From positions 1 through 31,488 of the forward strand of contig CAYJLN010000002.1 in NCBI GenBank assembly GCA_964371275.1: DNA of 31,488 nucleotides. The letters are read 5' to 3'. Positions 1-28,999 of the stretch are shown one piece after another. Under the pieces are notes generated by a model. It was not told the origin of the DNA, did no database searches, and saw nothing but the letters and a program-made list of their open reading frames with translations. The first letter of the stretch is position 1. Every line of letters begins with the position of its first letter. Source of the stretch: Candidatus Woesearchaeota archaeon (lineage in GTDB: Archaea; Nanobdellota; Nanobdellia; SCGC-AAA011-G17; UBA489). The translations under genes and the position numbers were made by a program.

Positions 1-31
1 ACCTATATACCTATTAGTAATATACTATTAA

Positions 32-46
32 GTATTTAAACCTTTC
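32..46 (-). promoter_or_regulatory. Putative archaeal BRE-TATA for a divergent gene outside the window
   Basis: Reverse complement reads GAAAGGTTTAAATAC, like other promoters in this window. Confidence 0.4.
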
Positions 47-61
47 GGTTAGTAACATAGT

Positions 62-74
62 AAAACTTATATAC
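62..74 (+). promoter_or_regulatory. Putative BRE-TATA of the lipid-module operon
   Basis: AAAAC-TTATATAC lies about 25 nt upstream of ATG 98. Confidence 0.5.
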
Positions 75-97
75 TAAAGAGGATATAACTATTCAAT

Positions 98-244
98 ATG
101 GGAAAGATTAAATTAGAAGGCTATGTTTGTGAGCGTTGCAGTCATAAATGGGTTCCCCGGGAAACAACTACAGAAGAGCCAAAAGTCTGCCCAAAATGCA
201 AAAGCCCTTATTGGAATGTGCCGAGAAAGAGTGAGAAAAAATAA
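98..244 (+). CDS. Small zinc-ribbon protein (48 aa), absent from the ORF track
   Basis: Hand translation: MGKIKLEGYVCERCSHKWVPRETTTEEPKVCPKCKSPYWNVPRKSEKK. It has two CxxC pairs, a TATA box upstream, and a stop 1 nt before the next ATG. Confidence 0.85.
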   Translation: MGKIKLEGYVCERCSHKWVPRETTTEEPKVCPKCKSPYWNVPRKSEKK

Positions 245-245
245 T

Positions 246-2603
246 ATGAATAAAAAGGAGGTAGGTTCTATAAAAGAATTAATAGAAAAATTTCTTCTAA
301 CTAATAAAAACAAGTTTCAATTTACGCATAAAAAGGGATATAGGACACATAGCATTAATAACAAAGAATTGCTTATAAAAATACAAAGAACAAGAATTTT
401 TTTAAAAAGTGTAAAAATAAAAAAAGGAGATAAGATAATTATTTTAGGAAATAATTCTATAGATTGGATTAGTGTCTATTTTGCGTGTATATTATCAGGT
501 ATAGTTGTCGTTCCTCTTGACACTTTAACAGATAAATTATTACTAAAAAGAATTCAGAAGCAAATTAGAGCTAAAGCAATTTTTTTAGATAAAGGATTAG
601 CCTCTATCAAAATAAAAAAGTATTATTTAGATGAATTTGATAATTTAATAAGGAATATAAAGATTAAAAATATACAAAAAGTAAAAATAAATCCAAACGA
701 TATTCTAGAGATTGTCTACACATCTGGAACCACAGATGAACCAAAGGGAGTTATATTGGCGAATAAAAATATTATTTGTGCTGTAAATTCTGCAATAAAT
801 TCTGTCCCATTAAAAATAAGATTAAAGATTATTCATTTACTTCCTTTAAGCCATATTTTTGGCCAAGTTTATGGCTTATTTTTACCAATGTATTTCAAAC
901 ATAAAATATTTTTTATTGATTCCATACAACCCAATAAAATAATCTCTTTTATAAAAAACCAAGGTATAAACTGTGCTATTTTAGTTCCAGGTATATTGGC
1001 TACATTAAAAAAAGAATTAGAGGGGAAAAATGTTTTATTGAATCTGGGAATACAGTTTAGGTTAATCGGGGTTGGTGGAGCTCCATTAGATATTAAATTA
1101 GAGAAATGGTGGAGAGCACATCTAATAACAGTAATACAAGGATATGGTTTAACTGAGACAGCTTCTGTTGTTTCAACAAATAGAATAGGAATTAGCAAAC
1201 CAAGTAGTGTTGGAAAGATAGCTGAAAACATCGAAGTTAAGTTAGGCGAAGATAATGAAATATTAGTAAAGGGGAAAAATGTAACACCTGGTTATTATAA
1301 TGACAAGGAAAAAACAAAACAATCTTTTGAAGGTAGTTGGTTTAAAACAGGGGATATTGGAGAAATTAAAAATGGCTATTTGTATGTTAAAGGAAGAAAA
1401 AAAGATGTTATAATAACAGGATCTGGCTTAAAAACTTATCCTATAGACGTAGAAAATATTTTAAACAAAGTAAATGGTGTGGAAGAAAGTTGCGTTTTAG
1501 AAAATGATGGGAAGATACATGCTACTTTAATATTAAATAAAAGAGTTAGTGTTGCCAAGATTATTAATAGCACAAACGAAAAATTAATGACTCATCAGAA
1601 GATTACTAGCTATTCTGTTTGGCCATATATAAATTTCCCAAAGACCCAAATAGGAAAAATAAAAAAATTCATTGTTCTGGAAGAGATTAATAAATTAAAA
1701 AATATTTCTTATAGCTATAAAAATAAACTATTCAAAATTATTGGTAATGTTCTAAAACCACACCAAAAAATAAAATCAAATTCCAAATTATCTGATCTTG
1801 GAATGGACTCTCTCAAAAGAGTAGAGTTGGTTTCTGAGTTTGAAAAAGAATTTGGAATTGAAATTGACGAATTAAAAATCAATCAATATACAAAAATTGC
1901 TAATCTTAATAAAATTATGAAAGAAAGTCATGTCCATAAAATAAGACCTAAAAAATGGACTATAAATCCGATTTCGAAAATTATCAGATTTATCTTTCAA
2001 CAGTTCTTAATCTTCCCAGTAATAAGAATATTTACTAAAACACATTATTATGGTCTGGAAAATATTAAAAATATTGAAGAACAGGTTATATTTGCAAGCA
2101 ATCACCAGAGTTCCTTTGATGCTCCAGTTATTATTAAAAAATTAGGAACAAAAATAGTTGTTGCAGCTGATTCAGATTATGTTATGGGTATAGGAACAAA
2201 AGGATCAATTTTATTTAAATTTTATAGAATATTCAAAGGTTATCTAGTTGGATTATTTTTTAATGCCTATCCATTCGGAGAAACTATTGGAATAAAAACA
2301 AGTTTAGAATTTACAGGTGAAATGATTGATAGAGGATATTCAATTTTGATATTTCCAGAAGCCCATCGAACAAAAGATGGAAAAATAAAATCTTTCAAGT
2401 CAGGTATAGGCTATTTAGCCTTAAATATGGATGTTCCAATTATCCCAATCAAAATACAAGGATTATTTGAAATACTTCCTATAGGAACCTTTATTCCTAA
2501 ATTTGGAAAAAGCATAGTTAAGATAGGAAAACCAATTATAATAAAAAATTTATCTTACATGGAAGCTGCAAAATTAATTGAAAAAAGGATAAAAGAATTA
2601 TGA
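246..2603 (+). CDS. Fused AMP-dependent acyl ligase + acyl-carrier (phosphopantetheine) domain + PlsC-type acyltransferase, 785 aa
   Basis: Adenylation motifs YTSGTTDEPKG, GYGLTE, TGDIG and GRKKD; carrier motif LGMDSL; acyltransferase motifs NHQSSFD and FPE. Start moved from 123 to 246 because 98-244 is a separate gene. Confidence 0.9.
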   Translation: MNKKEVGSIKELIEKFLLTNKNKFQFTHKKGYRTHSINNKELLIKIQRTRIFLKSVKIKKGDKIIILGNNSIDWISVYFACILSGIVVVPLDTLTDKLLLKRIQKQIRAKAIFLDKGLASIKIKKYYLDEFDNLIRNIKIKNIQKVKINPNDILEIVYTSGTTDEPKGVILANKNIICAVNSAINSVPLKIRLKIIHLLPLSHIFGQVYGLFLPMYFKHKIFFIDSIQPNKIISFIKNQGINCAILVPGILATLKKELEGKNVLLNLGIQFRLIGVGGAPLDIKLEKWWRAHLITVIQGYGLTETASVVSTNRIGISKPSSVGKIAENIEVKLGEDNEILVKGKNVTPGYYNDKEKTKQSFEGSWFKTGDIGEIKNGYLYVKGRKKDVIITGSGLKTYPIDVENILNKVNGVEESCVLENDGKIHATLILNKRVSVAKIINSTNEKLMTHQKITSYSVWPYINFPKTQIGKIKKFIVLEEINKLKNISYSYKNKLFKIIGNVLKPHQKIKSNSKLSDLGMDSLKRVELVSEFEKEFGIEIDELKINQYTKIANLNKIMKESHVHKIRPKKWTINPISKIIRFIFQQFLIFPVIRIFTKTHYYGLENIKNIEEQVIFASNHQSSFDAPVIIKKLGTKIVVAADSDYVMGIGTKGSILFKFYRIFKGYLVGLFFNAYPFGETIGIKTSLEFTGEMIDRGYSILIFPEAHRTKDGKIKSFKSGIGYLALNMDVPIIPIKIQGLFEILPIGTFIPKFGKSIVKIGKPIIIKNLSYMEAAKLIEKRIKEL

Positions 2604-2935
2604 TACAAGTCAGAACTGGTTGTGATATTATAGAAATTATAAGATTCAATAAGTTAAATAAAAAAATATTAAATCAAATTTTTCACAAAAGTGAACTTAA
2701 AAGCTTAAAACCAGAAAAATTAGCAGGAATATTTGCTGCGAAAGAAAGTTGTAAAAAAGTATTCAATAGCCTTAGTTGGCATGATATACAAATTAAAAAT
2801 AAAAAAAGTGGAAAACCAGTATTAATATTAAATACTAAAAAAGATATATTAAGTTATGATCTAAGTATAAGTCACGATAAAAATTATGCAATCGCAACAG
2901 TTATCTTTCTGATTAGGAAGGGAGAGAGTATATAG
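2600..2935 (+). CDS. acpS: Holo-ACP synthase (4'-phosphopantetheinyl transferase)
   Basis: Motifs GCDIIEI, AGIFAAKES and LSISHD; ATGA overlap with the upstream gene. Confidence 0.9.
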   Translation: MIQVRTGCDIIEIIRFNKLNKKILNQIFHKSELKSLKPEKLAGIFAAKESCKKVFNSLSWHDIQIKNKKSGKPVLILNTKKDILSYDLSISHDKNYAIATVIFLIRKGESI

Positions 2936-2936
2936 C

Positions 2937-3800
2937 ATGGTTGCTACATTTTTGATTATTTTAAAAATAATTATTTTCTTAATCGGATTTATTTTACTAT
3001 TTTCATTGATGCAATTTTTAATAAGTATCCATCCTCCTCGCTACTACGATCATTCTGCTCCTAATGATTTTGGCTTAGAATATGAAAATGTTTCTTTAAC
3101 AACTTCAGATGGAATAAAGATTAAAGGGTGGTTAATTACCTCTAAAAATGCAAATGGTACTATTGTAGTAGGCCATGGATATCCATTTGATAAAGGAAAC
3201 GTACTACATGCTGTAATATTTCTCTATCCTGATTACAATCTCCTTTTGTATGATCATAGATACTTTGGAGAAAGTTCTGGTTCTATAACCACTGTAGGAA
3301 TTCGAGAAGTAGAAGATGTAAAAGCAGCCATAAATTTTGTTTATAAAAGATTTGGCAAAGACGAACCAATAGCCTTATTTGGATTCTCATTAAGCGCTTC
3401 AGCAATGTTAATGACTAAATCAAATGTAAAAGCAATTATTGCTGATTCGCCGTATGCTAATCTTGAGCTTATGATTAAACATATCTATTCAATATTTGGT
3501 CCATTTAAGTACCCATTTGTTGAAGTCACAAAAATTCTAGGTAAGATTTTCTTAAAAACAGATATAAGAAAGGTTTCACCTACAGTTGCTATTAAAGATA
3601 CAAATATTCCCATCTTTGTCATTCATGGAGATAAAGATACTCAAATACCGGTTGAGAATGCATATAATTTAAAAGCTAGCAATCCAGATATTGAACTTTG
3701 GATAGTTTCAGAAAGCGACCATGGACAAGTATATGTATTATCAAAAGATGAATATGAACGCCGTGTTAAGTCATTTTTAAAAAAGCATATGGTATTGTAA
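2937..3800 (+). CDS. Membrane-anchored alpha/beta hydrolase
   Basis: N-terminal hydrophobic helix; nucleophile elbow GFSLSA; HGDKD acid motif; SDHG histidine motif. Confidence 0.85.
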   Translation: MVATFLIILKIIIFLIGFILLFSLMQFLISIHPPRYYDHSAPNDFGLEYENVSLTTSDGIKIKGWLITSKNANGTIVVGHGYPFDKGNVLHAVIFLYPDYNLLLYDHRYFGESSGSITTVGIREVEDVKAAINFVYKRFGKDEPIALFGFSLSASAMLMTKSNVKAIIADSPYANLELMIKHIYSIFGPFKYPFVEVTKILGKIFLKTDIRKVSPTVAIKDTNIPIFVIHGDKDTQIPVENAYNLKASNPDIELWIVSESDHGQVYVLSKDEYERRVKSFLKKHMVL

Positions 3801-3825
3801 TATAATTATAAAATGGTGATTATAT

Positions 3826-4212
3826 ATGATTAAAGAGTGGAAAAAGGAGATTGCGAGAGATATTATAGCTCTAGGAAGTATTCCATTTTATTTTATTGTT
3901 ATCATCAGAGCAATTATTGGTGAATATACACCTTTTGTTTATCAATTATTATTTACTTTCATTATTCTACTAGTCTTATACCAATTTACAAGATTTAACC
4001 AATATATTGCGAGAGGGCTTGTTTTAGTTGTTTTTACATCAGCTTTCTACAATGTAGTATTATACACTATCTTTGCAGTTCTTTTATGGATCTGTATGAT
4101 TTTATCTTTAGTTTATCTAAAATTTAAAGGTAGTGAAATAACCAAAGGTGTTTTGTTAGGATTTATTAGTACAGGAATAAGTTATTACTTAACAACATTG
4201 TTTATAGCGTAA
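3826..4212 (+). CDS. Multi-TM membrane protein, possibly a degenerate PAP2-superfamily member
   Basis: About four hydrophobic segments. RDIIALGS at the N-terminus and SLVYLK...ITKGVLLG at the C-terminus resemble the PAP2 layout, but the catalytic residues are missing. Confidence 0.6.
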   Translation: MIKEWKKEIARDIIALGSIPFYFIVIIRAIIGEYTPFVYQLLFTFIILLVLYQFTRFNQYIARGLVLVVFTSAFYNVVLYTIFAVLLWICMILSLVYLKFKGSEITKGVLLGFISTGISYYLTTLFIA

Positions 4213-4216
4213 TATA

Positions 4217-5443
4217 ATGTCAATTAAAAAAGAGATATTCGGCTGGAGCATGTATGATTTTGCTAATACAATATTCTCAGCCTTATTTGTCACTGTTTAT
4301 TTTCCTTTATTCGTTGTTCTTAAAGGAGGAAATGCGCTTCATGTTGGACTAGTTATGTCTATCTCAATGTTTTTAGCAGGATTAATAGTTCCTTTTTTAG
4401 GAGCAATCGCTGATGTAACACAAAGAAAAAAGTTATTACTTCTTGTATTTACAATATTGTGTTGCATTTTTACTTTCTTCACAGGATTCTTTGACCTATT
4501 CACAGTTTTATTATTTGCTTTATTTGCTAATTTCTTCTATCATGCAAGTCTTGATGTTTATGATTCATTACTAATTAATATTTCAAATAAAAAAAACATG
4601 GGGTGGATATCTGGATTAGGAACAGGTATTGGATATTTAGGAACAATATTAAGTGTCATATTAGCTTATATTATTGGATATTTTTATGGTTTTGAAAGTA
4701 TCTTGGGAATAAAAACTATATTTATTTTAACAGCTGTTCTTTTCTTTGGATTTTCACTGTTTACATTTATCTTTGTTAAAGAAACTTCAAGAATAAAGAT
4801 TAAAAAACATCATTTTAAAGATGCTTTCAAAAGAGTAATTTTTACATTAAAGAACATAAGGAAATTTAAATCAGTATGGCTCTTTTTACTTGCTTCATTT
4901 TTATATACCGACGGCGCAAACACTGCAATTGTATTCTTATTTTTATATGCTAAAGACCAGATTGGATTAACATTAGTTCAATTTCTTCCAGTATACATAA
5001 TAATTGCCCTTGCTGCCGGTCTAGGTTCTATATCTTCTGGAAAGTTAGCTGATAAGCTAGGACATAAAAGAACTTTATCTATTGTATTATTTTCATGGAT
5101 AATAATTATTTTTATTTTATATCTAAAAACAAGTTATGCAACATTTTTATTAGCAGGTATTTTAGGCGGAGCACTACTGGGAGCTACTTGGACAACTACA
5201 AGACCTATGTTAGTAAGCATAGTGCCAAAAGGCAAAGTAGCTGAATTATTTGGCTACCAAGGTTTAACTGAAAAGTTTTCGGGTGTAATTGGTCCACTTT
5301 TATATGGTTTTATAGCAGTTGCCCTCGGATTTAGACAGGCCCTTTTAGTAGTTATTGTTTTATTTATTTTAGGAGCTATTGTTCTAACGTTTGTGAAAAC
5401 AAAGGAGTTACCTAAAAAGTATCAAGTGGTTACTCAGATATAA
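4217..5443 (+). CDS. MFS transporter (UMF1/Atg22-like family)
   Basis: About 12 TM segments; N-terminal WSMYDFAN signature; GAIADVTQRKK and GKLADKLGHKR MFS motif-A repeats. Confidence 0.85.
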   Translation: MSIKKEIFGWSMYDFANTIFSALFVTVYFPLFVVLKGGNALHVGLVMSISMFLAGLIVPFLGAIADVTQRKKLLLLVFTILCCIFTFFTGFFDLFTVLLFALFANFFYHASLDVYDSLLINISNKKNMGWISGLGTGIGYLGTILSVILAYIIGYFYGFESILGIKTIFILTAVLFFGFSLFTFIFVKETSRIKIKKHHFKDAFKRVIFTLKNIRKFKSVWLFLLASFLYTDGANTAIVFLFLYAKDQIGLTLVQFLPVYIIIALAAGLGSISSGKLADKLGHKRTLSIVLFSWIIIIFILYLKTSYATFLLAGILGGALLGATWTTTRPMLVSIVPKGKVAELFGYQGLTEKFSGVIGPLLYGFIAVALGFRQALLVVIVLFILGAIVLTFVKTKELPKKYQVVTQI

Positions 5444-5615
5444 GTTCTGTAGAGATCAGAAAACAACTAAGTGTATTAATTATTGCTAAACTCATCAAAT
5501 AAGAAAGAAACGAGTTCTTTTATCACCCGCATTCGACTTAGAGTCTGTGACCCGTAGATGTGACATAGAGCGAGATTAAGAACCCTGTTGGTGCCTATAG
5601 TTAAAGAAAAAAATA

Positions 5616-6080
5616 CTATCTTCTCCGTTTCTTAGGTTCATCCTTTCTTTCGGTAAATGATTTAAAATCTGCAGCGAGAAGCTTTTGAGAAAGATCAACC
5701 TCAAAATGGACGGCCAACGGACGACCGTACGTTCGGGTAGCAACTTCTACAGCAGAAACATAAACCCCGTAATGAAGGCGCCGTGCAATACCTCCTAATT
5801 GAGACATAAATGCCTCCGCAGGATCATTATGAACGAGCTTAAAAGCTCCATCAGAGCGTGCATAGAGAAGCATTCCTTTGTTCATAGCGAGAACGACATG
5901 AGGAACAACGCGATTCGGAAATTGACGATCAGCAAAGGAACTAAGATGAACAGTAATCCCTAGCGTAGATGAATCGTACTCTTGTCCTCGTGCATGACGA
6001 CGATCAAGTTTCTCGTATCCTTGCCGAAGTAAATACTCCCGACAAGATTCAATAATAGTATCGCTAAGAGATTTAGTCAT
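5616..6080 (-). CDS. Hypothetical protein
   Basis: 154-aa ORF with GAAAGATTTAAATA about 25 nt upstream; no family recognised. Confidence 0.6.
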   Translation of the reverse strand: MTKSLSDTIIESCREYLLRQGYEKLDRRHARGQEYDSSTLGITVHLSSFADRQFPNRVVPHVVLAMNKGMLLYARSDGAFKLVHNDPAEAFMSQLGGIARRLHYGVYVSAVEVATRTYGRPLAVHFEVDLSQKLLAADFKSFTERKDEPKKRRR

Positions 6081-6209
6081 ACAAAAAGAAAGAAAAATTC
6101 CTATTTAAATCTTTCTCTTATTACCACTAAAAAGTAACGAACAGTAATGCTCTAAAAGAAAACCGGCTATAAAGAAAAAATGAAAAATAAAAGAAAAAGA
6201 AGGAAAACA

Positions 6210-6881
6210 CTAAAAGTGTTTTCGCATGTCTTTGATGATCGTCTCAGATTCTTTTCTCAACCCAAGTCCTAAGCCAATACCAAGAGCTAGAGCAATTCCG
6301 ACAGCTAAAGCGCCGATGATCAGCAGGAAGGTGTTCTCTAAGATAGAGACGTCAACACCAATTTGCTTGAGTCCTAAAATCAGGAACATCGCGATGATCA
6401 CGGTCTTCAAGATGCTTCCGCATGCCTTCGCGCCTTTCTGTTCCGTGTGCTCGCTGATCTTAAGCTTCACATAGTTTGCTACGGCAATACCGAAGAGCAA
6501 GACCACAATGGCTAAGATCACATCAGGCAGCCAGGAAACAAAGCGGTCCAAGAGCATGCTCAAGGTACCAAGGTTGATCAAGGCAACTGATTGTTGTAAG
6601 AATAAGATGATAATGTACCACTTGAATAGTTCGCCGGTAATGGCTGGTACATGCGTATGTCCAATGGTTTTGGACAGTCGTGCACGTCTGACATAATCGT
6701 CAACGCGCAGTTTCTCAAGGATGACCCGGACAGCATGTCCTAAGATAACACCCACAAAGCACCCAATAATGAGCACGATGATTGCAGCCACGAGCCCCGG
6801 TAATTGATTTACAATCGCATACCAAATAGCACTCAATGGATCTATTATTGCTTCACTCGTTTCACCAAAAAATCCTGCCAC
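6210..6881 (-). CDS. Conserved TM-helix-repeat protein (CmpX / MscS-associated TM helix family)
   Basis: Repeated LPxxxxAIxxLxxG helices; GTG start with a GGAGGTGA SD. Confidence 0.75.
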   Translation of the reverse strand: MAGFFGETSEAIIDPLSAIWYAIVNQLPGLVAAIIVLIIGCFVGVILGHAVRVILEKLRVDDYVRRARLSKTIGHTHVPAITGELFKWYIIILFLQQSVALINLGTLSMLLDRFVSWLPDVILAIVVLLFGIAVANYVKLKISEHTEQKGAKACGSILKTVIIAMFLILGLKQIGVDVSILENTFLLIIGALAVGIALALGIGLGLGLRKESETIIKDMRKHF

Positions 6882-6998
6882 TGGCAGTCACCTCCATTTT
6901 TTTACCTACAGTAAAAGGAATAGATTTCTTTAGTAAAGATCTCTTTAAATAGTTTTATAACCACTGGCCAAAAAAGACAAAACATCAAAACTGAGCAG

Positions 6999-11273: not shown

Positions 11274-11290
11274 ACTTTATAAAGGTTTCG
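11274..11290 (-). promoter_or_regulatory. Putative BRE-TATA for rnp2-psmA-exosome genes
   Basis: CGAAACCTTTATAAAG; the stop codon of the AbiEii-like gene lies inside the TATA box. Confidence 0.5.
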
Positions 11291-12044
11291 CAGAAACGCC
11301 GTCGTGATCGAGATACTGTGTAAAATGCCACGCAACTTGGGCGAAGTATGCGTCACTAAAGTCAATAGCGCTAAACACATCAGGCGGAAGAAGGTGGTTG
11401 AATGAACTAGTGATATCATCGCGGTGTGCAGGCGAACGGATATGATCGGCAACAGCACGAAGATAGTCTGGCGAAAGAACGTGATCATCCTCGCCATACG
11501 CACGAGCTTTATCCTGAAGCAGATGACTGCATGCGGGCGTTGTCAGCGTCATAAGATACGACAGGTCATAGAGGTCGCTTCCCTTGATGCTGCCTCGCGT
11601 ACGGTAACGAGAAAGGGTCGCAAGAATTTTATCCGCATAAAGTTCTAACGGGTCCTCAACAAGAAGCGCAGCGTGACGACGAGAAACGTGACGTGGTTCC
11701 ACAAGGCACGTCTGGCCATAGACTTCAACGTGCGTCGAAGGAAGATTTGCGCCTAAACCAAAGGAGAAACGTAAAAGGCGATGATGTGGGCCGACATGGG
11801 TTCTGAAGCTAGAAACCAGTTTTGTATAAGCAAGCGATTCAAACGCGTCAACAATACGCGATGATTCAATCGGAAGTGCATCGCTCACAAAATCAGCATC
11901 AGAAGGGTGACGAGGAGAACCATAGACAAAGTGAAGCGCAGCTCCACCTTGAAGGACCAGAACAGAGGGGAGGTAATGATGTTCAGCAATCTCCGTAAGT
12001 AATGTCTCAAGACTCTGACGGCGAAGAAGCTGAGTATTTTCCAT
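11277..12044 (-). CDS. AbiEii/AbiGii-family nucleotidyltransferase (type IV TA toxin-like)
   Basis: LQGGAALHFVYGSPRHPSDADF, ADKILATLSR and SDLYDL match the family pattern GGTAL...R.S.DLDF...K..A...R...D.YD. Confidence 0.8.
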   Translation of the reverse strand: MENTQLLRRQSLETLLTEIAEHHYLPSVLVLQGGAALHFVYGSPRHPSDADFVSDALPIESSRIVDAFESLAYTKLVSSFRTHVGPHHRLLRFSFGLGANLPSTHVEVYGQTCLVEPRHVSRRHAALLVEDPLELYADKILATLSRYRTRGSIKGSDLYDLSYLMTLTTPACSHLLQDKARAYGEDDHVLSPDYLRAVADHIRSPAHRDDITSSFNHLLPPDVFSAIDFSDAYFAQVAWHFTQYLDHDGVSAKPL

Positions 12045-13850: not shown

Positions 13851-14138
13851 TTATCCGTCAACAGTAAACAAGCGGTTGTCGTCAACGTCCCACAAGCCAA
13901 TGGTTGCTCCTGCATCAAGCCATCCATGCGCATAGTTCAGAGCAGCAAAAGCAGTCACCAAGTCTCCTTTGTCACAAAAATGCTTCGCATCACTTAAGTA
14001 ATTCTCAACCATCTCCAGAAATTCTTTTCGCGTCGTCTCCGTAATATTCACGTTTTCAAGGGCGCTTTTTGCCTTATCAAGCGCTTCTTCCGTAATCTTG
14101 AAGTATTTCGTCAGGCGTTCAGGAGTAATGGTATCCAT
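13851..14138 (-). CDS. DUF357-family protein
   Basis: YLSDAKHF..KGDLVTAFAALNYAHGWLDAG. Start moved to ATG 14138, which has a TATA box about 25 nt upstream. Confidence 0.85.
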   Translation of the reverse strand: MDTITPERLTKYFKITEEALDKAKSALENVNITETTRKEFLEMVENYLSDAKHFCDKGDLVTAFAALNYAHGWLDAGATIGLWDVDDNRLFTVDG

Positions 14139-14249
14139 AAAAAGAAGAGATGTTGAAGTCTTAAAAACGTTTCTCTTGGAATCGTGTATGTAGGTACTCT
14201 CAGATCTGTTTTCTCGCATAAGAGTTCTTTCTAAAGAGTAGTTAAGCAA

Positions 14250-14265
14250 GAAAAGTTTATAAATA
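14250..14265 (+). promoter_or_regulatory. Strong BRE-TATA with no annotated gene directly downstream
   Basis: GAAAAGTTTATAAATA. Confidence 0.55.
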
Positions 14266-14448
14266 ACGGGAATTTTTTGAGAATATGGTCCCCACAAAAA
14301 AGCTTAAAGGAGCAATAACAATTGACGACTCTGTAAAAAGTATATCTTTAGAGGCATCGTTAGTATGCCTACGAACGTGGACGTAAGAGTGTCAAAAACG
14401 AAAAACAATAAACAAATCCTTTTTAAATCACGAGTTAATGTTTTCTAG

Positions 14449-14808
14449 ATGCTCACCATCGTCCTCGATACCAGTTTTATTCTGACCTGTGTTCAGTACA
14501 GAATTGACATTAAAGAAGCTCTTCAAGATGCAATAGACCAGCAATTCACTATAGCTATTATCGACAAAACAAAAAATGAGCTCAAAAACAAGAAAGAGGG
14601 AAAACTAGCAGAGCAGCTTCTTGAAAAACTCAACCCAACAATCCTCACATCTCGACCAGAACACAATGTTGACACCGCAATCGCCTCTCTTCCTGCAGAA
14701 AACTGCATGGTAGCCACCCAGGACAGGGGCTTAAAAGAAAGGCTTAAAAAGAGGAGAATTCCCGTCCTGACTATCCGTCAAAAGAGGTATATCGAGCAGA
14801 GTGCCTAA
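14449..14808 (+). CDS. PIN-domain protein (Fcf1/Utp24-like)
   Basis: IVLDTSFI, VDTAI and VATQDRGLKERLK motifs; conserved position before rpoE'. Confidence 0.85.
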   Translation: MLTIVLDTSFILTCVQYRIDIKEALQDAIDQQFTIAIIDKTKNELKNKKEGKLAEQLLEKLNPTILTSRPEHNVDTAIASLPAENCMVATQDRGLKERLKKRRIPVLTIRQKRYIEQSA

Positions 14809-14822
14809 CCTATTGAGGTATC

Positions 14823-15407
14823 ATGTTTTACGAGATTACAGCGAGAAGCCACGTGAGAGTGCCGCCAAAGGCATTTAGTGAAAACACGGAAAAATCCATC
14901 AGGGGATCTTTAAAAGCACGTTTTGAAAACTTCATCTCAAAAGATTTAGGCGTCGTGATTGGTGTCACTGAGGTCGTGAAAGTCGGCGAAGGCATTATTA
15001 TCCCGGGCGACGGAGCAGCGTACTATGACACGACATTCAAGATTATTGTATTCAAGCCAGAGCTCCAAGAAGTCGTTGTGGGAAAGATCAACCAGATTTC
15101 TGATTTCGGAGCATTTTTAGAAATGGGGCCTTTAGACGGCATGATCCACATCAGCCAGACGATGGATGATTATGTCAGCTTCTCAAAAAGCAACACATTA
15201 ACAGGAAAAGAATCAAAGCGTTCCGTCAAAGTCGGAGATGTCTGTAAGGCACGTATTATTGCAATAAGCTACAAAGATATGGCAAACCCAAAGATAGGTC
15301 TCACGATGAGACAGCCAGCCTTAGGAAAAGAAGAATGGCTGAAAGAAGCAGTGAAAGTAAAACCGAAAGAAACAAAAGAGAGCAAATCAAAGGAAGAGAA
15401 GAAATGA
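14823..15407 (+). CDS. rpoE1: RNA polymerase subunit E' (Rpo7)
   Basis: IIPGDGAAYY, FGAFLEMGPLDGMIHISQ and KIGLTMRQPALGK motifs. Confidence 0.95.
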   Translation: MFYEITARSHVRVPPKAFSENTEKSIRGSLKARFENFISKDLGVVIGVTEVVKVGEGIIIPGDGAAYYDTTFKIIVFKPELQEVVVGKINQISDFGAFLEMGPLDGMIHISQTMDDYVSFSKSNTLTGKESKRSVKVGDVCKARIIAISYKDMANPKIGLTMRQPALGKEEWLKEAVKVKPKETKESKSKEEKK

Positions 15408-15586
15408 AAAAGGTCTGTAAAAAGTGCAAAATATTTGTTGAAGGAACAGCCTGTCCCATCTGTAAAGGAAACCAGTTTAGTGAAAACTGGAAAGGCAGAG
15501 TCTATATAGCTGATCCTCAAAAATCAATCATCGCAAAAAATATGGGAATCGCTGAAAAAGGAGAATATGCCATTAAGGTAAAATGA
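15404..15586 (+). CDS. spt4: Transcription elongation factor Spt4 (RpoE'')
   Basis: CKKC..CPIC zinc sites, FSENWKG, GEYAIKV; ATGA overlap start at 15404. Confidence 0.92.
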   Translation: MKKVCKKCKIFVEGTACPICKGNQFSENWKGRVYIADPQKSIIAKNMGIAEKGEYAIKVK

Positions 15587-15891
15587 TGATGGAAATCTTT
15601 CGCGAGAAAAAGAACGAACTGGTGAACAGAAAAGAGATTGTCTTTGAATACGATAATGCGGGAAAAAGCACGCCAAAACACGAAGACGTCCTTAAAATGG
15701 TGAGTGACGCAACAAAAAAAGCGCCGGATACAATCTCCATTAAAAAAATCGAGCAGCGTTTTGGTGGTGGGCGATGCAAAATAACCGCCTTTGTCTATGA
15801 TACGAAGGACTCAAAAAACAAGTATGAAATAATCAACAAAAAGAAAAAAGTGAAAAAAGACGAGCAGCCAGCTGCCGAACCAAAGAAATAA
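15583..15891 (+). CDS. rps24e: 30S ribosomal protein S24e
   Basis: KNELVNRKEI, TPKHEDV and FGGG motifs; conserved gene order. Confidence 0.9.
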   Translation: MMMEIFREKKNELVNRKEIVFEYDNAGKSTPKHEDVLKMVSDATKKAPDTISIKKIEQRFGGGRCKITAFVYDTKDSKNKYEIINKKKKVKKDEQPAAEPKK

Positions 15892-15893
15892 CC

Positions 15894-16073
15894 ATGGCAA
15901 AGAAAAAAGTGAAAAATAAAAAACCATCAGAACGATGGAAGAAATACAAAGTTGCCGGAGAAAAGCTCGAACGAGGCCAAAACTGCCCAAAATGCGGTCC
16001 AGGGATATTTTTAGCAGCCCACAAGGACAGGCTTTATTGCGGAACCTGCCATTTTGTCCAAATGAAGAAATAG
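15894..16073 (+). CDS. rps27ae: 30S ribosomal protein S27ae (59 aa), absent from the ORF track
   Basis: Hand translation contains CPKCGPGIFLAAHKDRLYCGTC. Confidence 0.95.
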   Translation: MAKKKVKNKKPSERWKKYKVAGEKLERGQNCPKCGPGIFLAAHKDRLYCGTCHFVQMKK

Positions 16074-16141
16074 AACCTTAATAGTCTAAGTAGCCTCTAC
16101 AAAAAGTAAAGTTTATAATATATAGTCTAAAGTATATATTT

Positions 16142-16485
16142 ATGGCTATACCAGACTCCAGCATTAGGAAATGGGCAAAGGAAGCACTACTATACATCAC
16201 AGAGTCAGGCGTTCCTATCGAAGATCTAATCGAAAAAGAAAGAAGGGAATTAGAACCTAAATTCCGAAATTTGGAAAAGATATCTGTAAAAAAGAGATAG
16301 GCAGGGCAACGAAAAGTCTAGCGGTAAAACTAGTAAAAGCAACCCCTCTGATCGACCGGCTTGATGAAGAAAAATTTCAGGGGCACGTTTCCAATATGGC
16401 TGTATTGATGGTCATGTATTCACTAGAATGTTCTTCGGATAGGAAATCTCCTCGAAATATTTATGATTATTTAGCAAACGTATAA
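16142..16485 (+). CDS. Hypothetical protein split by a -1 frameshift (52-aa ORF plus overlapping -1 frame; about 114 aa fused)
   Basis: ATG 16142 lies about 25 nt after a TATA box. Frame 0 stops at 16300. The -1 frame is open from 16261 to 16485. In-phase A_AAA_AAG sits at 16288-16294. Confidence 0.55.
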
Positions 16486-16571
16486 GAAATCATAATCTTA
16501 AAAATAGAAATATTTAAATATAATTAATACGCATCAAACAGTATATTCTCTGAGATTTGAGGTGGTAAGCA

Positions 16572-17096
16572 ATTCCTGAAAAAAGAGGTAATGATAAGGA
16601 CGTTGAAGATCTGTTTCTTAAGCTGACGATGCCTGGTCGTACGTTACGACCACAAACAGTCATAAAACGGGATGCAGTCTTCGAAGAAGAAGCACAACAA
16701 AAAGCAGTACCGATCCAGCAAGATCCTCAACCACAACCAGTGCAAACTCAGCAACCACAAGAACGACAAACGACCATTCAAGAACCACCAATAGAACAAA
16801 TGACACAGCAAGAAACGCCAGTCCAGCCCCAACAAATACCAGAATTAGTGACGCAACCAGTCATTCAACCAGAACCAGTAATAATTCCTGAACCACCAAT
16901 GCCACAACCGACTCCAGAACCGGAAATATCAACACAAGAACCTGTTCGAGAATCAATTGTCAAGCAAGCAGAAATTCGACCATCAGCGCCAGTCACTGCT
17001 AATGAAGAATCAGCAGAACCAAAATTATCAGGAAACTATCAAGATAGGAAAAAAATCGAAGATTTAGCGCGAAGGATCTTTAATTCTAATCGGTGA
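16572..17096 (+). CDS. Pro/Gln/Glu-rich low-complexity protein; likely ATT start (first ATG at 16629)
   Basis: GAGGTG SD 7 nt upstream of an in-frame ATT; in-frame TAA two codons upstream; central QPQP/PEP repeats. Confidence 0.65.
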   Translation: MPEKRGNDKDVEDLFLKLTMPGRTLRPQTVIKRDAVFEEEAQQKAVPIQQDPQPQPVQTQQPQERQTTIQEPPIEQMTQQETPVQPQQIPELVTQPVIQPEPVIIPEPPMPQPTPEPEISTQEPVRESIVKQAEIRPSAPVTANEESAEPKLSGNYQDRKKIEDLARRIFNSNR

Positions 17097-17277
17097 AAAA
17101 AGCAAGTATAACCCGAGGAAGTCGACTCCGAAGAGCGGACCTCCAGGGGAAAAAGAGGTGATAAAAAATCTGGAGTGGAACTTCTTTATAAATGTTTCGG
17201 TTGTAACTATTTTAAAATAGTAACACAAACAAGCCAAAACTATATATAGCAACAAGGCAAGAAATGACTGAAAGACC

Positions 17278-17982
17278 ATGCAGGACCAAATATACGACCT
17301 ATTAGTGCAAAAGGACGAAGTCACGTGGCAGAGCTTGATCTACGAACTCGTCAAAACAGATCAGCTAAACCCATGGAATATTGATATTAGTGTCTTGACC
17401 AAACGCTATCTTGAAACAGTAAAGAAAATGAAAGAGCATAATTTCTTTATCTCAGGAAAAGTGCTCTTAGCATCAGCAATTCTGCTTAAAGTAAAATCAA
17501 ACAAGCTCGTCGAAGAGAATCTCATGGACTTCGATAACATGTTGTTCCCTCGGGAAGAAGACTTGCTGGAAGACCAAGACTATGAGATACAGCAAAAAAT
17601 AAGGTATGACGCACCAGAACTATTAATCAAAACGCCGCAGCAGCGAAAGAAACAGTTAACCTTGAACGATCTGATGGAAGCATTAGAAAAGGCATTGAAT
17701 GTCGAAGAAAACAGAAAAATTCGCGCCATGGATCGAGTCATTGCAGAGGCAGTCATCCCTGAAAAAACGATCGACATCACAAAACTACTTGCTGGCCTGT
17801 ACGAAAAAATTGTCAATATGTTCAGCGCAAGATCGAAACTGACGTTTTCCGAACTCGTCAATTCAGAAAAGAAGGAAGATAAAATTATCACGTTTATTCC
17901 GCTCCTCCATTTGGATGCGCAGCAGAAGGTTGATTTATCGCAAGAGCGGGCATTTGGGGAGATTGACATTAAAGTACCATGA
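17278..17982 (+). CDS. scpA: Segregation and condensation protein A (kleisin)
   Basis: LNPWNIDISVLTKRYL, SGKVLLASAILLKVKS, TFIPLLHL and LSQERAFGEI motifs. Confidence 0.92.
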   Translation: MQDQIYDLLVQKDEVTWQSLIYELVKTDQLNPWNIDISVLTKRYLETVKKMKEHNFFISGKVLLASAILLKVKSNKLVEENLMDFDNMLFPREEDLLEDQDYEIQQKIRYDAPELLIKTPQQRKKQLTLNDLMEALEKALNVEENRKIRAMDRVIAEAVIPEKTIDITKLLAGLYEKIVNMFSARSKLTFSELVNSEKKEDKIITFIPLLHLDAQQKVDLSQERAFGEIDIKVP

Positions 17983-18460: not shown

Positions 18461-19723
18461 TTACTTGGTAAGTTTCTTGATGGCCTCTTGAATGCCCAAT
18501 AATTCTTCTTTCCCGCTTTTCATGTCGCGAAGCTTCACTTTCTTCTTCTTCAGTTCTTCAGGGCCAATAATAAGCACGTACGGAATCCCCATGCTGTCTG
18601 CATAGTCAAAATTCTTCGACACATTACGGTCAAGCATGTCGATTTCTGTCGGGATACCAGCGTCACGAAGCTTCTGGGCAAAGGCGAAAGACTCGTCAAA
18701 TGTTTTGATAGGCAACACATAGACGCGTGTCACTGTTTTCTTGGTCTCTTTACGCAAGGTAAGAAGAGCGTCCATAATCGTGTCAAGACCAAAAGAAAGC
18801 CCAACTGCAGGGACATCACCAGTGCCTCTAAACTTGCCAATCATCTGGTCATAGCGTCCACCAGCAGCAATAGCGCTCGATATAGGATTATTCTCGGCAA
18901 AAACTTCAAAGATTGTCCCCGTATAATAGGCGAGACCGCGAGCAAGGGAAACCTCAAAGGTAACCTGTGGCGCGAGAGAAAGAACCTGCTCCAATTCCTC
19001 TAATCCTTCTTGCTGTTTCAAAAGTTTCTTTAATGCAACGAGTTTATCGCCATTCGATCCTTTCAGAGTAATCGCCTTCACCAAAAAATCAAGCGCTGAT
19101 TTTCCAACGCCTTTGTCAGCAAGTTCTTTTTTGACAGCGTCAAGACCAATCTTCTCTAATTTATCAAGAGTGAGGATGACGGTCGTTCGTTGATCAGAAG
19201 GAACAGATGACGCATCAAGCAGTGCATCAAGAATCTTGCGGTTGTTCACGCGGATGATCACGGGGATTGCAAGAGCACGGAATGCTGCCTGTGCCAAACA
19301 GAGCAATTCTGCATCTTGTTTCAGCGAAGAAGCGCCAATGACATCAACGTCGCACTGGACAAATTCACGATAGCGCCCAGTTTTCAACGGTCCATCGCGG
19401 AAAACCGTGCCAATTTGATAGCGGCGGAACGGCATTTTCATCGTTGGATTCATCGCCACGACACGAGCAAGAGGGACGGTAAGATCGTAGCGTAACGCAA
19501 GCTCTCGGTCACCCTGATCTTTTAAAGTAAACGTCTCTTTGAGGATTTCAGCACCGCCAGCATATTTCGAAGAGAGCACATCATACCGTTCTAAGATAGG
19601 AGTATCTGCAGGGGAAAATCCATACTGTTCAAAAGTGGTTCGAAGAATAGTTTCAACCTCTTGGCGCAAGATTTTTTCATCTGGTAAAAAGTCCCGTGTT
19701 CCTTTCGCTCGTTGTAGTTCCAT
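18461..19723 (-). CDS. hisS: Histidine--tRNA ligase
   Basis: KGTRDFLP, LRYDLTVPLAR, GRYREFVQCD, RGLAYYTG and GGRYD motifs. Confidence 0.97.
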   Translation of the reverse strand: MELQRAKGTRDFLPDEKILRQEVETILRTTFEQYGFSPADTPILERYDVLSSKYAGGAEILKETFTLKDQGDRELALRYDLTVPLARVVAMNPTMKMPFRRYQIGTVFRDGPLKTGRYREFVQCDVDVIGASSLKQDAELLCLAQAAFRALAIPVIIRVNNRKILDALLDASSVPSDQRTTVILTLDKLEKIGLDAVKKELADKGVGKSALDFLVKAITLKGSNGDKLVALKKLLKQQEGLEELEQVLSLAPQVTFEVSLARGLAYYTGTIFEVFAENNPISSAIAAGGRYDQMIGKFRGTGDVPAVGLSFGLDTIMDALLTLRKETKKTVTRVYVLPIKTFDESFAFAQKLRDAGIPTEIDMLDRNVSKNFDYADSMGIPYVLIIGPEELKKKKVKLRDMKSGKEELLGIQEAIKKLTK

Positions 19724-19737
19724 GGTTAAGTAAAAAG

Positions 19738-19824
19738 GGTGACCGGGGAGAATCGAACTCCCGTCTCGGGCTGTCTGCTAAATGAAGCCACAGGCCCAAA
19801 TTCTACCATTAAACCACGGTCACC
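19738..19824 (-). tRNA. tRNA-His(GTG) with encoded G-1 and a 15-nt intron at 37/38 (19773-19787)
   Basis: Acceptor GTGACCG/CGGTCAC with discriminator C; T-loop GTTCGATT; anticodon stem TGGGC/GCCCG. The intron CTTCATTTAGCAGAC forms a CUGU/GCAG central helix with GG|C and AC|A bulges. Confidence 0.92.
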
Positions 19825-27998: not shown

Positions 27999-28063
27999 AG
28001 ACAGACATTACAAGAATAATGTCCTTATAAAGGTTGCTACATGTACCCAGCTCACGACCACAT
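27057..28063 (-). mobile_element. 1007-nt archaeal bulge-helix-bulge intron in 23S (about E. coli 2588/2589)
   Basis: Central helix GUUA/UAAC, bulges AA|A and AU|A, intron stem UGUGG/CCACA. Excision restores GAGCUGGGUUAAAAACGUCGUGAG at E. coli-like spacing. Confidence 0.9.
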
Positions 28064-28717
28064 TTTAACCCAGCTCACGAACCGCTTTAACCGGTGAACA
28101 CCCGTACCCTTGGGCGCTTCTACACGCCCAGGATGCGATGAGCCGACATCGAAGTAGCAAACAGCGCCGTCGATTTGAGCTCTTAGGCGCTACGACTCAG
28201 TTATCCCCGAGATAGCTTTTCTGCCATCTCTAGCCCTCATTAAGAAGGACATAGAGGTTCGCTAGACCAGACTTTCGTCTCTGATTACCGCAATTTCAAG
28301 CAATCAGTCAGGCGAGCTTATGCTCTTACGCTCCACTCCCGATTTCTAAACGGGATGAGCTCACCATAGGGCCCCGCTGATACCTTTTCAGCGGGCTGCC
28401 GCCCCAGCGAAACTGTCCGCCAGTCGGTGTCCTTGAAGTACATCAAGTAAGCAGCATAAAATGCGGAGAGTGGTGTTTCATTGGTGCCTAGACTCACCCT
28501 GACGAGCGAGCCGTCGAACGGCTACCACCTACGCTACACACCGCATTTTACACCGCAGCAACAAGCTACAGTAAAGTTCTACGGGGTCTTCGCTTCCCAC
28601 TGGAATACTCTGGCCTTCACACCAGAACGGGAAATTCGGAGGCTTCTAGCTTGGGACAATGGAGACCTCGTTATGCCATTCATGCAAGCCGACATTCAAT
28701 CGGCAAGGTATTACGCT

Positions 28718-28999
28718 CACGTCTGTTACTTAATTGACCTTCACTTAAAAAGTAAAGGCGGACATTCATTTCTGAATGTCTCCTGCTATCACTAACAGGG
28801 TCGGACTATATCTTATACCTGCATTTCGGTATTCTGGCGTATAGTCTCTGAGGATTTTTCTCATCGAGAAATCTTTCCTGCTGATGATCTTTCCACAACA
28901 GATTGTCAGAACTTACAGTGCGTTGCCGCACAAAAGGTCTACTGTGTGTCATCAAGAATTTCCAGCATATAGCCAGATTTTACTAAGGCAACATGACTT
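28718..28999 (-). mobile_element. 282-nt group I intron at LSU position 1931, no ORF
   Basis: Inserted in CUUAAGGU|AGCG; 5' exon ends in U and the intron ends in G. P1 UAAGGU/GCCUUA, P3 UCUGGC/GCCAGA, P4 UGCUG/CAGCA, P7 GACUA/UAGUC; R UCAGAGACUAUA; S AAGAUAUAGUCC. Confidence 0.93.

Follow-up and report, generated by a model that had tools for sequence, protein, structure and literature searches.

A low-GC cassette encoding a ligase-carrier-acyltransferase fusion and its AcpS in a Woesearchaeota-type archaeon

DPANN archaea and bacteria of the candidate phyla radiation (CPR) are for the most part unable to synthesise lipids themselves, and the routes by which they acquire and remodel membranes are an open question. 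One contig of a Candidatus Woesearchaeota metagenome-assembled genome (MAG; GCA_964371275.1, contig CAYJLN010000002.1) carries, at its very start, a set of genes of the kind used to activate fatty acids on an acyl carrier protein (ACP) and pass them to a lipid. What could such a set do in an archaeon, and where did it come from? The window, by which we mean the whole stretch of 31,488 nucleotides, is an entire contig (C2) of this MAG, which comprises 780 kb in 80 contigs and is 84% complete with 0.01% contamination. A first-pass annotation had read positions 98-5443 as a self-contained six-gene operon for the salvage of fatty acids and lysolipids. We find that the cassette proper consists of five genes (246-5443, 5.2 kb), encoding a ligase-carrier-acyltransferase fusion, the 4'-phosphopantetheinyl transferase AcpS, a membrane esterase, a PAP2-fold protein and an ATG22-type transporter of the major facilitator superfamily (MFS). 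It is a recently acquired foreign block from another, low-GC (~29%) DPANN lineage in a host of 43% GC; we infer the direction and timing of this transfer. The sequences suggest salvage of exogenous fatty acids onto a glycerolipid as the best reading of its function.

The genes of the cassette

Six open reading frames (ORFs) lie on the + strand at 98-244, 246-2603, 2600-2935, 2937-3800, 3826-4212 and 4217-5443; successive ORFs are spaced by 1 nt, a 4-nt overlap, 1 nt, 25 nt and 4 nt. The tight same-strand packing described in the first-pass annotation is thus borne out, and its domain descriptions hold. Domains were called by Pfam and NCBIfam profile searches with curated cut-offs. Neighbours were counted at 18 DPANN loci, the family comparison covered 24 relatives and the phylum sample 400 high-quality genomes. 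At the core of the cassette stand the fusion and AcpS, often joined by the MFS transporter, whereas the genes for esterase and PAP2-fold protein are accessory.

The 785-aa fusion (246-2603, +) consists of a ligase, a carrier domain, a hydrophobic linker and an acyltransferase domain of the PlsC/AGPAT (1-acylglycerol-3-phosphate acyltransferase) type. Its longest ORF opens at 123, and alignment with homologues sets the start at the ATG at 246. Pfam detects three domains only. The AMP-binding core (PF00501, 4e-51, 174 bits against a cut-off of 29.9) starts at residue 37 and runs to residue 351 (354-1298), with its C-terminal subdomain continuing to about nt 1700; the PP-binding carrier domain (PF00550, 7.5e-10, 39.4 bits against 20.8) follows at 1725-1907, and the acyltransferase domain (PF01553, 3e-16, 59.9 bits against 23) at 2043-2456. 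None of the signature residues of the three domains varies among 14 homologues, the most distant of which is 35% identical. They comprise the A3 (YTSGTTxxPKG), A5 (GYGxTE), A7 (TGD) and A10 Lys motifs, which place the ligase in the ANL superfamily; Ser522 in the LGMDSL motif of the carrier, as expected of a PF00550 member; and, in the acyltransferase, H620x4D625 within NHQSSFD (the HX4D motif) and P704-E705 within the FPEA block, as expected of a PF01553 member. The closest solved structures to the ligase are FadD13 (1.7e-36) and MenE, and its sequence points to an enzyme of the fatty-acid type. An exact-sequence look-up of the fusion returned no match.

The acyltransferase domain has a single match in the Protein Data Bank (PDB), PlsC of Thermotoga maritima (5kym, 2.6e-14), and its NCBIfam matches are AGP_acyltrn (8.7e-15) and Aas-LplT fusion models (7e-12). 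It scores below the cut-off of the AGPAT subfamily TIGR00530 (54.6 against 102.95 bits) and far below that of an Aas-type model (43.8 against 1221 bits). The complete fusion likewise falls short of the Aas equivalog cut-offs (PRK08043, 16.5 against 886 bits; PRK06814, 128.5 against 1349; PRK08633, 121 against 1221). We compared the MAG carrying the window (G000) with four further genomes that carry the fusion (G016, G042, G166 and G139), three of which are ~100% complete and one of which, G016, is 63% complete. In all five the fusion is the sole PF00550 match and the sole PF01553 match.

AcpS (2600-2935, +), whose start overlaps the fusion stop by 4 nt, matches PF01648 (1.6e-10, 41.4 bits against 25) and TIGR00556 (51.1 against 45.35 bits) and lies just under the cut-off of the equivalog TIGR00516 (56.1 against 59.8 bits, E 4e-15). 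It falls in group I of the AcpS proteins, which have an ACPS domain of ~110-130 aa scoring above cut-off. It adjoins the fusion in 15 of the 18 DPANN loci, and occurs in 13 of 13 sampled fusion carriers as against 19 of ~387 other genomes. Because the fusion holds the only PP-binding domain in the genome, AcpS has a single plausible client. The 19 high-quality phylum genomes with an AcpS domain and no fusion match at E <= 1e-60 (among them G125, G136, G104, G132 and G146) may hold more divergent fusions or another DPANN carrier-protein system.

The last gene (4217-5443, +) encodes a 408-aa MFS transporter of the ATG22/UMF1 type (MFS_1, 6e-37; ATG22, 1.4e-31). The first-pass annotation had compared it with LplT, the lysolipid flippase of Escherichia coli; this parallel fails, since BLASTP against E. 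coli LplT gives E = 0.13 and none of the NCBIfam matches at E <= 0.01 is to an LplT or LplT-Aas model. The two proteins are related only by the MFS fold. A homologous MFS gene adjoins the fusion in nine of the 18 loci. In L108, L111 and L113 the transporter is 70-77% identical to that of the window and the fusion only 37-42%; L007 and L008 show the reverse, with ~32% for the transporter and 53-56% for the fusion. The operon loci hold two MFS subtypes, and the subtype does not track the fusion. This discordance of identities argues that modules of the cassette have been reshuffled or recombined between lineages.

The hydrolase (2937-3800, +) matches alpha/beta hydrolase families in Pfam and has a hydrophobic N-terminus. 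Ser151 (in GFSLSA), Asp234 and His262 are invariant in eight homologues and align with the esterase 5g59 (E 1.2e-28 over 255 residues), as do the GxSxG-like nucleophile elbow and the HGxxD motif; the N-terminal transmembrane anchor distinguishes the window protein from 5g59. It is followed by a helical membrane protein of 128 aa (TM4; 3826-4212, +), which belongs to no Pfam or NCBIfam family. An AlphaFold2 model of TM4 (pLDDT 88) was compared with 48,161 solved chains using VIA-align, and the top nine were all membrane proteins of the PAP2 superfamily (Z 14.2-8.5; G6PC1, LpxE, PgpB, Aur1, SMSr and LPP1), although helical bundles can reach Z ~13 by chance. Foldseek agrees, with a TM-score of 0.67 to LpxE and many 'PAP2 family' clusters of the AlphaFold database, and three distant members of the TM4 family give weak PAP2 matches in Pfam (best E 0.005). 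By comparison of the predicted model, then, TM4 has the PAP2 fold. The likeness to the PAP2 phosphatases LpxE (6ebu), PgpB (5jki, 6fmx and 8bm3) and G6PC1 (9jtl) lies in this helical-bundle fold (Z 14.2-11.5, TM-score 0.53-0.67), whereas TM4 is much shorter and lacks their catalytic motifs and histidines. It has no KX6RP, PSGH or SRX5HX3D motif and not one histidine in its 128 residues, there is no conserved histidine in the family, and hhalign against E. coli PgpB gives a probability of 0.4%, that is, no profile-level similarity. Since the canonical catalytic motifs are absent, TM4 is not a catalytic PAP2 phosphatase. We read it as a non-catalytic or non-canonical lipid-phosphate-binding protein; the earlier label 'PAP2-like' is supported by the fold and not by the sequence.

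The TM4 family is small: in a set of 1.84 billion proteins clustered at 50% identity it accounts for 170 clusters, almost all of 120-140 aa, the named ones from Woesearchaeota; D12, R28, Y75, G108 and G112 are invariant. The hydrolase adjoins the fusion in four of the 18 loci and TM4 in two. Because TM4 also occurs alone, beside a gene of the phosphatidylethanolamine-binding-protein (PBP) family, or with the hydrolase only, we regard the two as an accessory pair; both genes are real, but they are not fixed members of the operon. The PBP neighbour is found on a 1 Mb Woesearchaeota contig (L139:6556-7393), where the TM4 gene lies directly 3' of it and far from any fusion, which is another hint of a lipid-related role.

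The fusion has hundreds of full-length three-domain homologues. MAGs of Nanoarchaeota and Woesearchaeota supply those at 50-67% identity, several of them on contigs of 100-230 kb; homologues at ~35% are found in Patescibacteria, Chloroflexota and unclassified bacteria, and relatives at 22-31% in Terriglobales, Nitrosomonas, Bacteroidales and Opitutales. Within the phylum sample 14 of the 400 genomes carry the fusion, all of them in the host's class and in other orders. Gene order varies among the 18 loci. The five-gene order is identical in L007 and L124, the same genes occur in L005, L012 and L113, and a core of fusion, AcpS and MFS gene is present in many. A pattern scan of genome contigs with generic ligase motifs returned mostly ordinary bacterial acyl-CoA ligases and no DPANN neighbourhoods.

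A foreign island in an archaeal contig

The five cassette genes have a GC content of 0.25-0.31, and of 0.16-0.20 at third codon positions (GC3), against 0.429 for the genome (standard deviation 0.024 in 2 kb windows) and a host GC3 of ~0.45. When the whole MAG is ranked by GC in 2 kb windows, the lowest eight all fall in the cassette, making it the strongest outlier. In other genomes the GC content of the operon agrees with that of its own flanks. A metagenome contig, L124, is collinear with the window at 88.5% nucleotide identity over the C-terminus of the fusion, AcpS, hydrolase, TM4 and MFS genes, in that order, and has 29% GC throughout, including 1.3 kb of unrelated downstream flank; a lineage therefore exists in which the operon is compositionally native. 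All five genes have evolved under purifying selection relative to L124 (dN/dS 0.10-0.41). A still closer copy, ~97% identical, is present in the groundwater run X5 at a depth of 15-27; it lacks the host flank and diverges after 5425, and is known without a recovered contig. Of the words sampled from 4600-6600, 6-15% are present in further groundwater runs, as would be expected from a ~97% copy of the island part only. No protein more than 88% identical to the cassette proteins was found in the protein collection searched.

Both edges of the block can be placed. On the left, window 1-238 is 90% identical at the nucleotide level to the family member G017 (L127), where an unrelated gene then follows. 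Positions 1-97 (+), upstream of the Zn-ribbon gene, are accordingly host-type DNA outside the island, and the left edge lies at 239-245, where GC3 drops from 0.37 to 0.18. On the right, the alignment with L124 ends at 5403, the X5 copy diverges after 5425 and GC rises, which puts the edge in the last codons of the MFS gene (5404-5443); the window transporter has 11 extra C-terminal residues compared with L124. The gene on the left flank thus belongs to the host family, and G017 shows the corresponding 'empty' site. Foreign composition, host genes on both sides and absence from close relatives together mark the block as a horizontally acquired genomic island.

The gene on the left flank (98-244, +) encodes a 48-aa CxxC...CxxC Zn-ribbon protein whose Pfam match is weak and below cut-off. 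The first-pass annotation had counted it as the first member of the operon, which our data contradict. Its composition is host-like (GC 0.41, GC3 0.37), homologues of up to 89% identity occur in 12 of the 24 family relatives, it adjoins the fusion in none of the 18 other DPANN loci, and unrelated genes lie 3' of it in G017 and G010. The Zn-ribbon gene and its upstream region are kept at 84-90% nucleotide identity across genera of the host family, and the gene that follows differs: the lipid island here, an unrelated ORF of at least 97 aa in G017 (L127) and a 194-aa ORF in G010 (L128). Foreign cargo may insert preferentially 3' of this gene, as at a hotspot; alternatively, the gene may be a portable promoter or leader. 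Window 62-225, covering the Zn-ribbon gene and upstream sequence, has ~10-fold depth in all four metagenome runs. The island begins 1 nt 3' of the Zn-ribbon gene and has no obvious promoter of its own, and the host gene may supply one for the cassette. A promoter and terminator scan with bacterial models, which do not describe the archaeal promoter type, gave 33 matches where 35.6 were expected.

Could the block have been joined to the contig by mistake? A bacterial or other low-GC fragment misassembled or misbinned at an archaeal contig end would account for its position at the very start of the contig and for a GC content 15 points off. Because the block sits at a contig end, we tested for a chimera with contigs assembled independently from public runs. 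In X1, the probable source run, a single 6,144-bp Logan contig covers 199-6342 and takes in the entire block, the right junction and the ORF beyond it. The runs X2 and X3 come from different samples and a different study; their contigs cross the junction at 5168-6192 (0 mismatches) and 5327-6162 (1 mismatch). The two sides of the right junction have similar depth (22 against 27 in X1, ~4-5.6 against 3-4.4 in X2 and ~4.3-5.7 against 3.6-4.9 in X3). Moreover, the left flank is a host-family gene, the remaining flanks are archaeal, and the closest homologues of every island gene are from DPANN and not from bacteria. We therefore reject both a chimeric assembly and bacterial contamination, and consider an artefact of any such kind the least probable of the explanations discussed here. 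It is hardly more probable that the block is native and vertically inherited, its foreign look being a local compositional bias. A genome of the same family, G016, does have the genes for fusion, AcpS, hydrolase and TM4, and a clade uniting its copy with that of the window is not rejected by an approximately unbiased (AU) test (p = 0.30). However, the G016 locus has a host-like GC of 44-47%, matching its flanks, and its fusion is just 50-51% identical to that of the window; G016 is also the only one of the 24 family relatives in which the fusion was found, and none was found in sampled genomes of the order's other families. A GC3 of 0.18 over five genes, against 0.45 in the host, is the extreme of the genome. 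Finally, the block is 88-97% identical at the nucleotide level to copies in other contexts, yet the host's histidyl-tRNA synthetase (HisRS) has no relative above 71% amino-acid identity. In a protein tree the window copy groups with P0002 and P0004 (SH-like support 94) within a DPANN clade of 61 rows (support 100). Our argument for transfer draws on composition, on context and on near-identical copies elsewhere, not on this tree.

The host itself is a tiny, symbiont-type DPANN archaeon of the Woesearchaeota type. The contig carries a complete archaeal 23S rRNA gene, the 3' end of a 16S rRNA gene, an archaeal RNase P RNA and tRNA-Ala, together with an archaeal exosome superoperon (two RNase PH subunits, Rrp4, SBDS and proteasome alpha) and HisRS, whose closest relatives (66-71% amino-acid identity) are named Woesearchaeota, Nanoarchaeia or Nanoarchaeota. 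These genes make the first-pass description of a 'DPANN-like archaeon' correct. That annotation had also said its proposal would be undermined if the block belonged to a bacterial genome or the cluster were found in no other archaeon; the contig is archaeal, the join is not chimeric and the cluster is conserved in multiple DPANN MAGs and loci.

Several other features of the contig were noted. Directly past the island lies an ORF of 154 aa (5616-6080, -) with a host-like GC of 0.43; Pfam assigns it to no family, none of the 24 family relatives has a homologue, the Atlas offers no convincing relative, and it may be an orphan or further foreign DNA. An AbiEii-type nucleotidyltransferase toxin of a type IV toxin-antitoxin system (PF08843, 4.9e-16) is encoded at 11277-12044 (-) in this very small genome. 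Positions 14000-17500 show a strong AT skew (0.25-0.33) and several short ORFs on the + strand. A tRNA at 19737-19823 (-), 14 nt from the HisRS gene (18461-19723), scores 51.9 bits with the Rfam tRNA model and is given as 'type undetermined' by ARAGORN; by eye it reads as tRNA-His (GUG) whose anticodon is followed by a short intron. Within the 23S rRNA gene (28027-30975), 28782-29064 (-) matches the group I intron model of Rfam (64 bits, E 3e-14).

What the cassette may do

We read the cassette as a five-gene kit, recently transferred from a low-GC DPANN lineage, that attaches scavenged fatty acids to a membrane glycerolipid, and give this a probability of roughly 0.55. Searches of the five carrier genomes found neither a ketoacyl synthase nor GGGPS in any of them, and PlsY only in G016; four of the five, including that of the window, have a CDP-alcohol phosphatidyltransferase, and the window genome has one UbiA prenyltransferase. 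With the only PP-binding and PF01553 domains residing in the fusion and no fatty-acid synthase found, any acyl chain must be exogenous. The logic put forward in the first-pass annotation, in which a fatty acid is activated on the carrier in cis and then transferred, fits these findings and PlsC as the sole solved relative of the acyltransferase.

The kit would work as follows. AcpS would convert the carrier domain of the fusion to its holo form, using coenzyme A (CoA) that is probably imported or scavenged. The ligase would adenylate an exogenous fatty acid and load it onto the cis carrier as a thioester, and the PlsC-type domain, held at the membrane by the hydrophobic linker, would move the acyl chain to a lysophospholipid or a glycerolipid of the lysophosphatidic-acid type. 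The MFS protein might bring in substrate or flip the lipid, the membrane esterase might release fatty acids or lysolipids from host lipids, and the histidine-less PAP2-fold protein might bind or present a lipid phosphate. We infer the substrates, the acceptor and the roles of these last three proteins, the roles from gene context only.

A number of points weigh against this reading. In ElbD of Myxococcus xanthus, the only relative that has been studied, ligase and carrier activity were shown, and acyltransferase activity was not detected in vitro (PMC9131029). The chemistry proposed here, including the putative acceptor of the acyl chain, is read from sequence and context. The transporter has no specific similarity to LplT (E 0.13), most loci lack the esterase and PAP2-fold protein, which are also found without the fusion, and the PAP2-fold protein has no catalytic histidines. 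No CoA-synthesis genes to feed AcpS were found in a MAG that is only 84% complete: the archaeal dephospho-CoA kinase was not found in this genome or in the other four carriers, nor a PPAT-type domain in this one. As no route to CoA was found, the operon is not fully self-contained, contrary to what had been claimed for it. As to the transfer, none of the six genes encodes an integrase or transposase, and no flanking repeat longer than 9 nt was found; a search for att-like repeats at both edges gave longest common words of 9 nt, and neither edge has a tRNA. The assembly graph branches at 6315-6342 and 6873-6902, and the backbone of the protein tree is poorly resolved, with the AU test not rejecting a clade with the G016 copy.

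The acyl chain might instead go to another target, whether a lipid (a glycolipid, a lipid bearing an amino acid or polyamine, an ether-linked 'lyso-archaeol') or a protein (a lipoprotein or one of the S-layer), so that the fatty acid decorates a surface molecule or signal and does not rebuild a bacterial-type phospholipid. We consider this a possible but doubtful alternative. It would suit the acyltransferase scores below the PlsC and Aas cut-offs (54.6 against 102.95 and 43.8 against 1221 bits), the lack of a first acyltransferase of the PlsY or PlsB type in most carriers and a transporter of the ATG22/UMF1 type and not LplT; the UbiA prenyltransferase and CDP-alcohol phosphatidyltransferase of the window genome may, on this account, handle archaeal-type lipids. 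It sits less easily with PlsC as the sole solved relative, with AGPAT and Aas-type phospholipid acyltransferases as the best named models, and with the HX4D motif and FPEx block typical of glycerolipid acyltransferases. Much less probable is an enzyme of the ElbD type, which would help to make alkyl-ether lipids from fatty acids, a role proposed for the ElbD matches of Woesearchaeia. The order of ligase, carrier and AGPAT domains is that of the three C-terminal domains of ElbD (PMC9131029), and ElbD homologues have been reported from BLAST searches of Woesearchaeia MAGs (PMC11868695), but the 785 residues contain no fatty acyl reductase (FAR) domain, the loci inspected have no elbB/C/E-like neighbours, and the FAR-less homologues are explicitly described as of unknown function (PMC9131029).

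Transfer of scavenged fatty acids to a glycerolipid thus remains our preferred reading. It can be extended, tentatively and with odds that we put clearly below even, to a mobile, self-sufficient 'ester-lipid salvage cassette' circulating among DPANN, with related forms in CPR, that would esterify scavenged bacterial fatty acids onto glycerolipids, give its host a mixed or bacterial-type membrane, and have been caught here just after transfer, with no time yet for its composition to approach that of the host, expressed by read-through from the conserved Zn-ribbon gene. Taken together with this extension, and no more firmly than it, the host would make no fatty acids and apparently no ether lipids of its own.

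Known relatives and implications

Modules of this kind are already known, with hundreds of database copies and ElbD-like matches in published work, and are biochemically uncharacterised. FAR-less, ElbD-like homologues with ligase, ACP and AGPAT domains are widespread in other phyla and unstudied (PMC9131029), and a Black Sea survey reported BLAST matches to ElbD in MAGs of Woesearchaeia (PMC11868695). PlsC homologues in DPANN were noted earlier (PMC6431249), and other bacterial-type genes for fatty acids and lipids have been reported from Woesearchaeota (PMC10936187). ElbD (FAR-ligase-ACP-AGPAT) has the nearest architecture, sharing the ligase-ACP-AGPAT order with the fusion. The window protein differs in lacking the N-terminal FAR1-like reductase domain and elbB/C/E neighbours, and in forming an operon with AcpS, an ATG22-type MFS transporter, an esterase and a PAP2-fold protein.

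The nearest functional analogue is the Aas/LplT system of E. coli, in which an ANL ligase and a PlsC-type acyltransferase are found beside an MFS protein and lysolipid is re-esterified with exogenous fatty acid (PMC11416262). The domains of Aas and the fusion are homologous by BLASTP, the ligases sharing 23% identity (E 4e-24) and the acyltransferase blocks matching at E 2e-6. In Aas, however, the acyltransferase precedes the ligase and there is no carrier; the order in the fusion is reversed, so that BLASTP aligns the domains crosswise, and a cis carrier with a dedicated AcpS takes the place of free ACP. Given the reversed order, the cis carrier, scores far below the equivalog cut-offs and a transporter unrelated to LplT beyond the superfamily, the fusion is not Aas. 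The parallel drawn in the first-pass annotation holds for generic homology of the ligase and PlsC-type domains, and breaks down over domain order and the transporter. PlsC of T. maritima (5kym) shares with the acyltransferase domain the HX4D motif, the FPEx block and a preceding hydrophobic membrane-association segment. Unlike PlsC, the domain in the fusion shares one polypeptide with the machinery for its acyl donor, and it scores below the TIGR00530 cut-off.

New here are the demonstration of the cassette as a transferred island, its five-gene form, which adds an esterase and a PAP2-fold protein devoid of histidine, and the recognition of the Zn-ribbon gene as host DNA. The window is of value because it supplies evidence for transfer and a clearly delimited group of proteins for biochemical work. 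The cassette passes from one DPANN lineage to another as a compact unit, and purifying selection maintains it afterwards, which argues that it confers a portable, self-contained benefit. A ligase-carrier-acyltransferase protein with its own AcpS is a testable candidate for putting foreign fatty acids into an archaeal membrane, and so bears on the 'lipid divide'.

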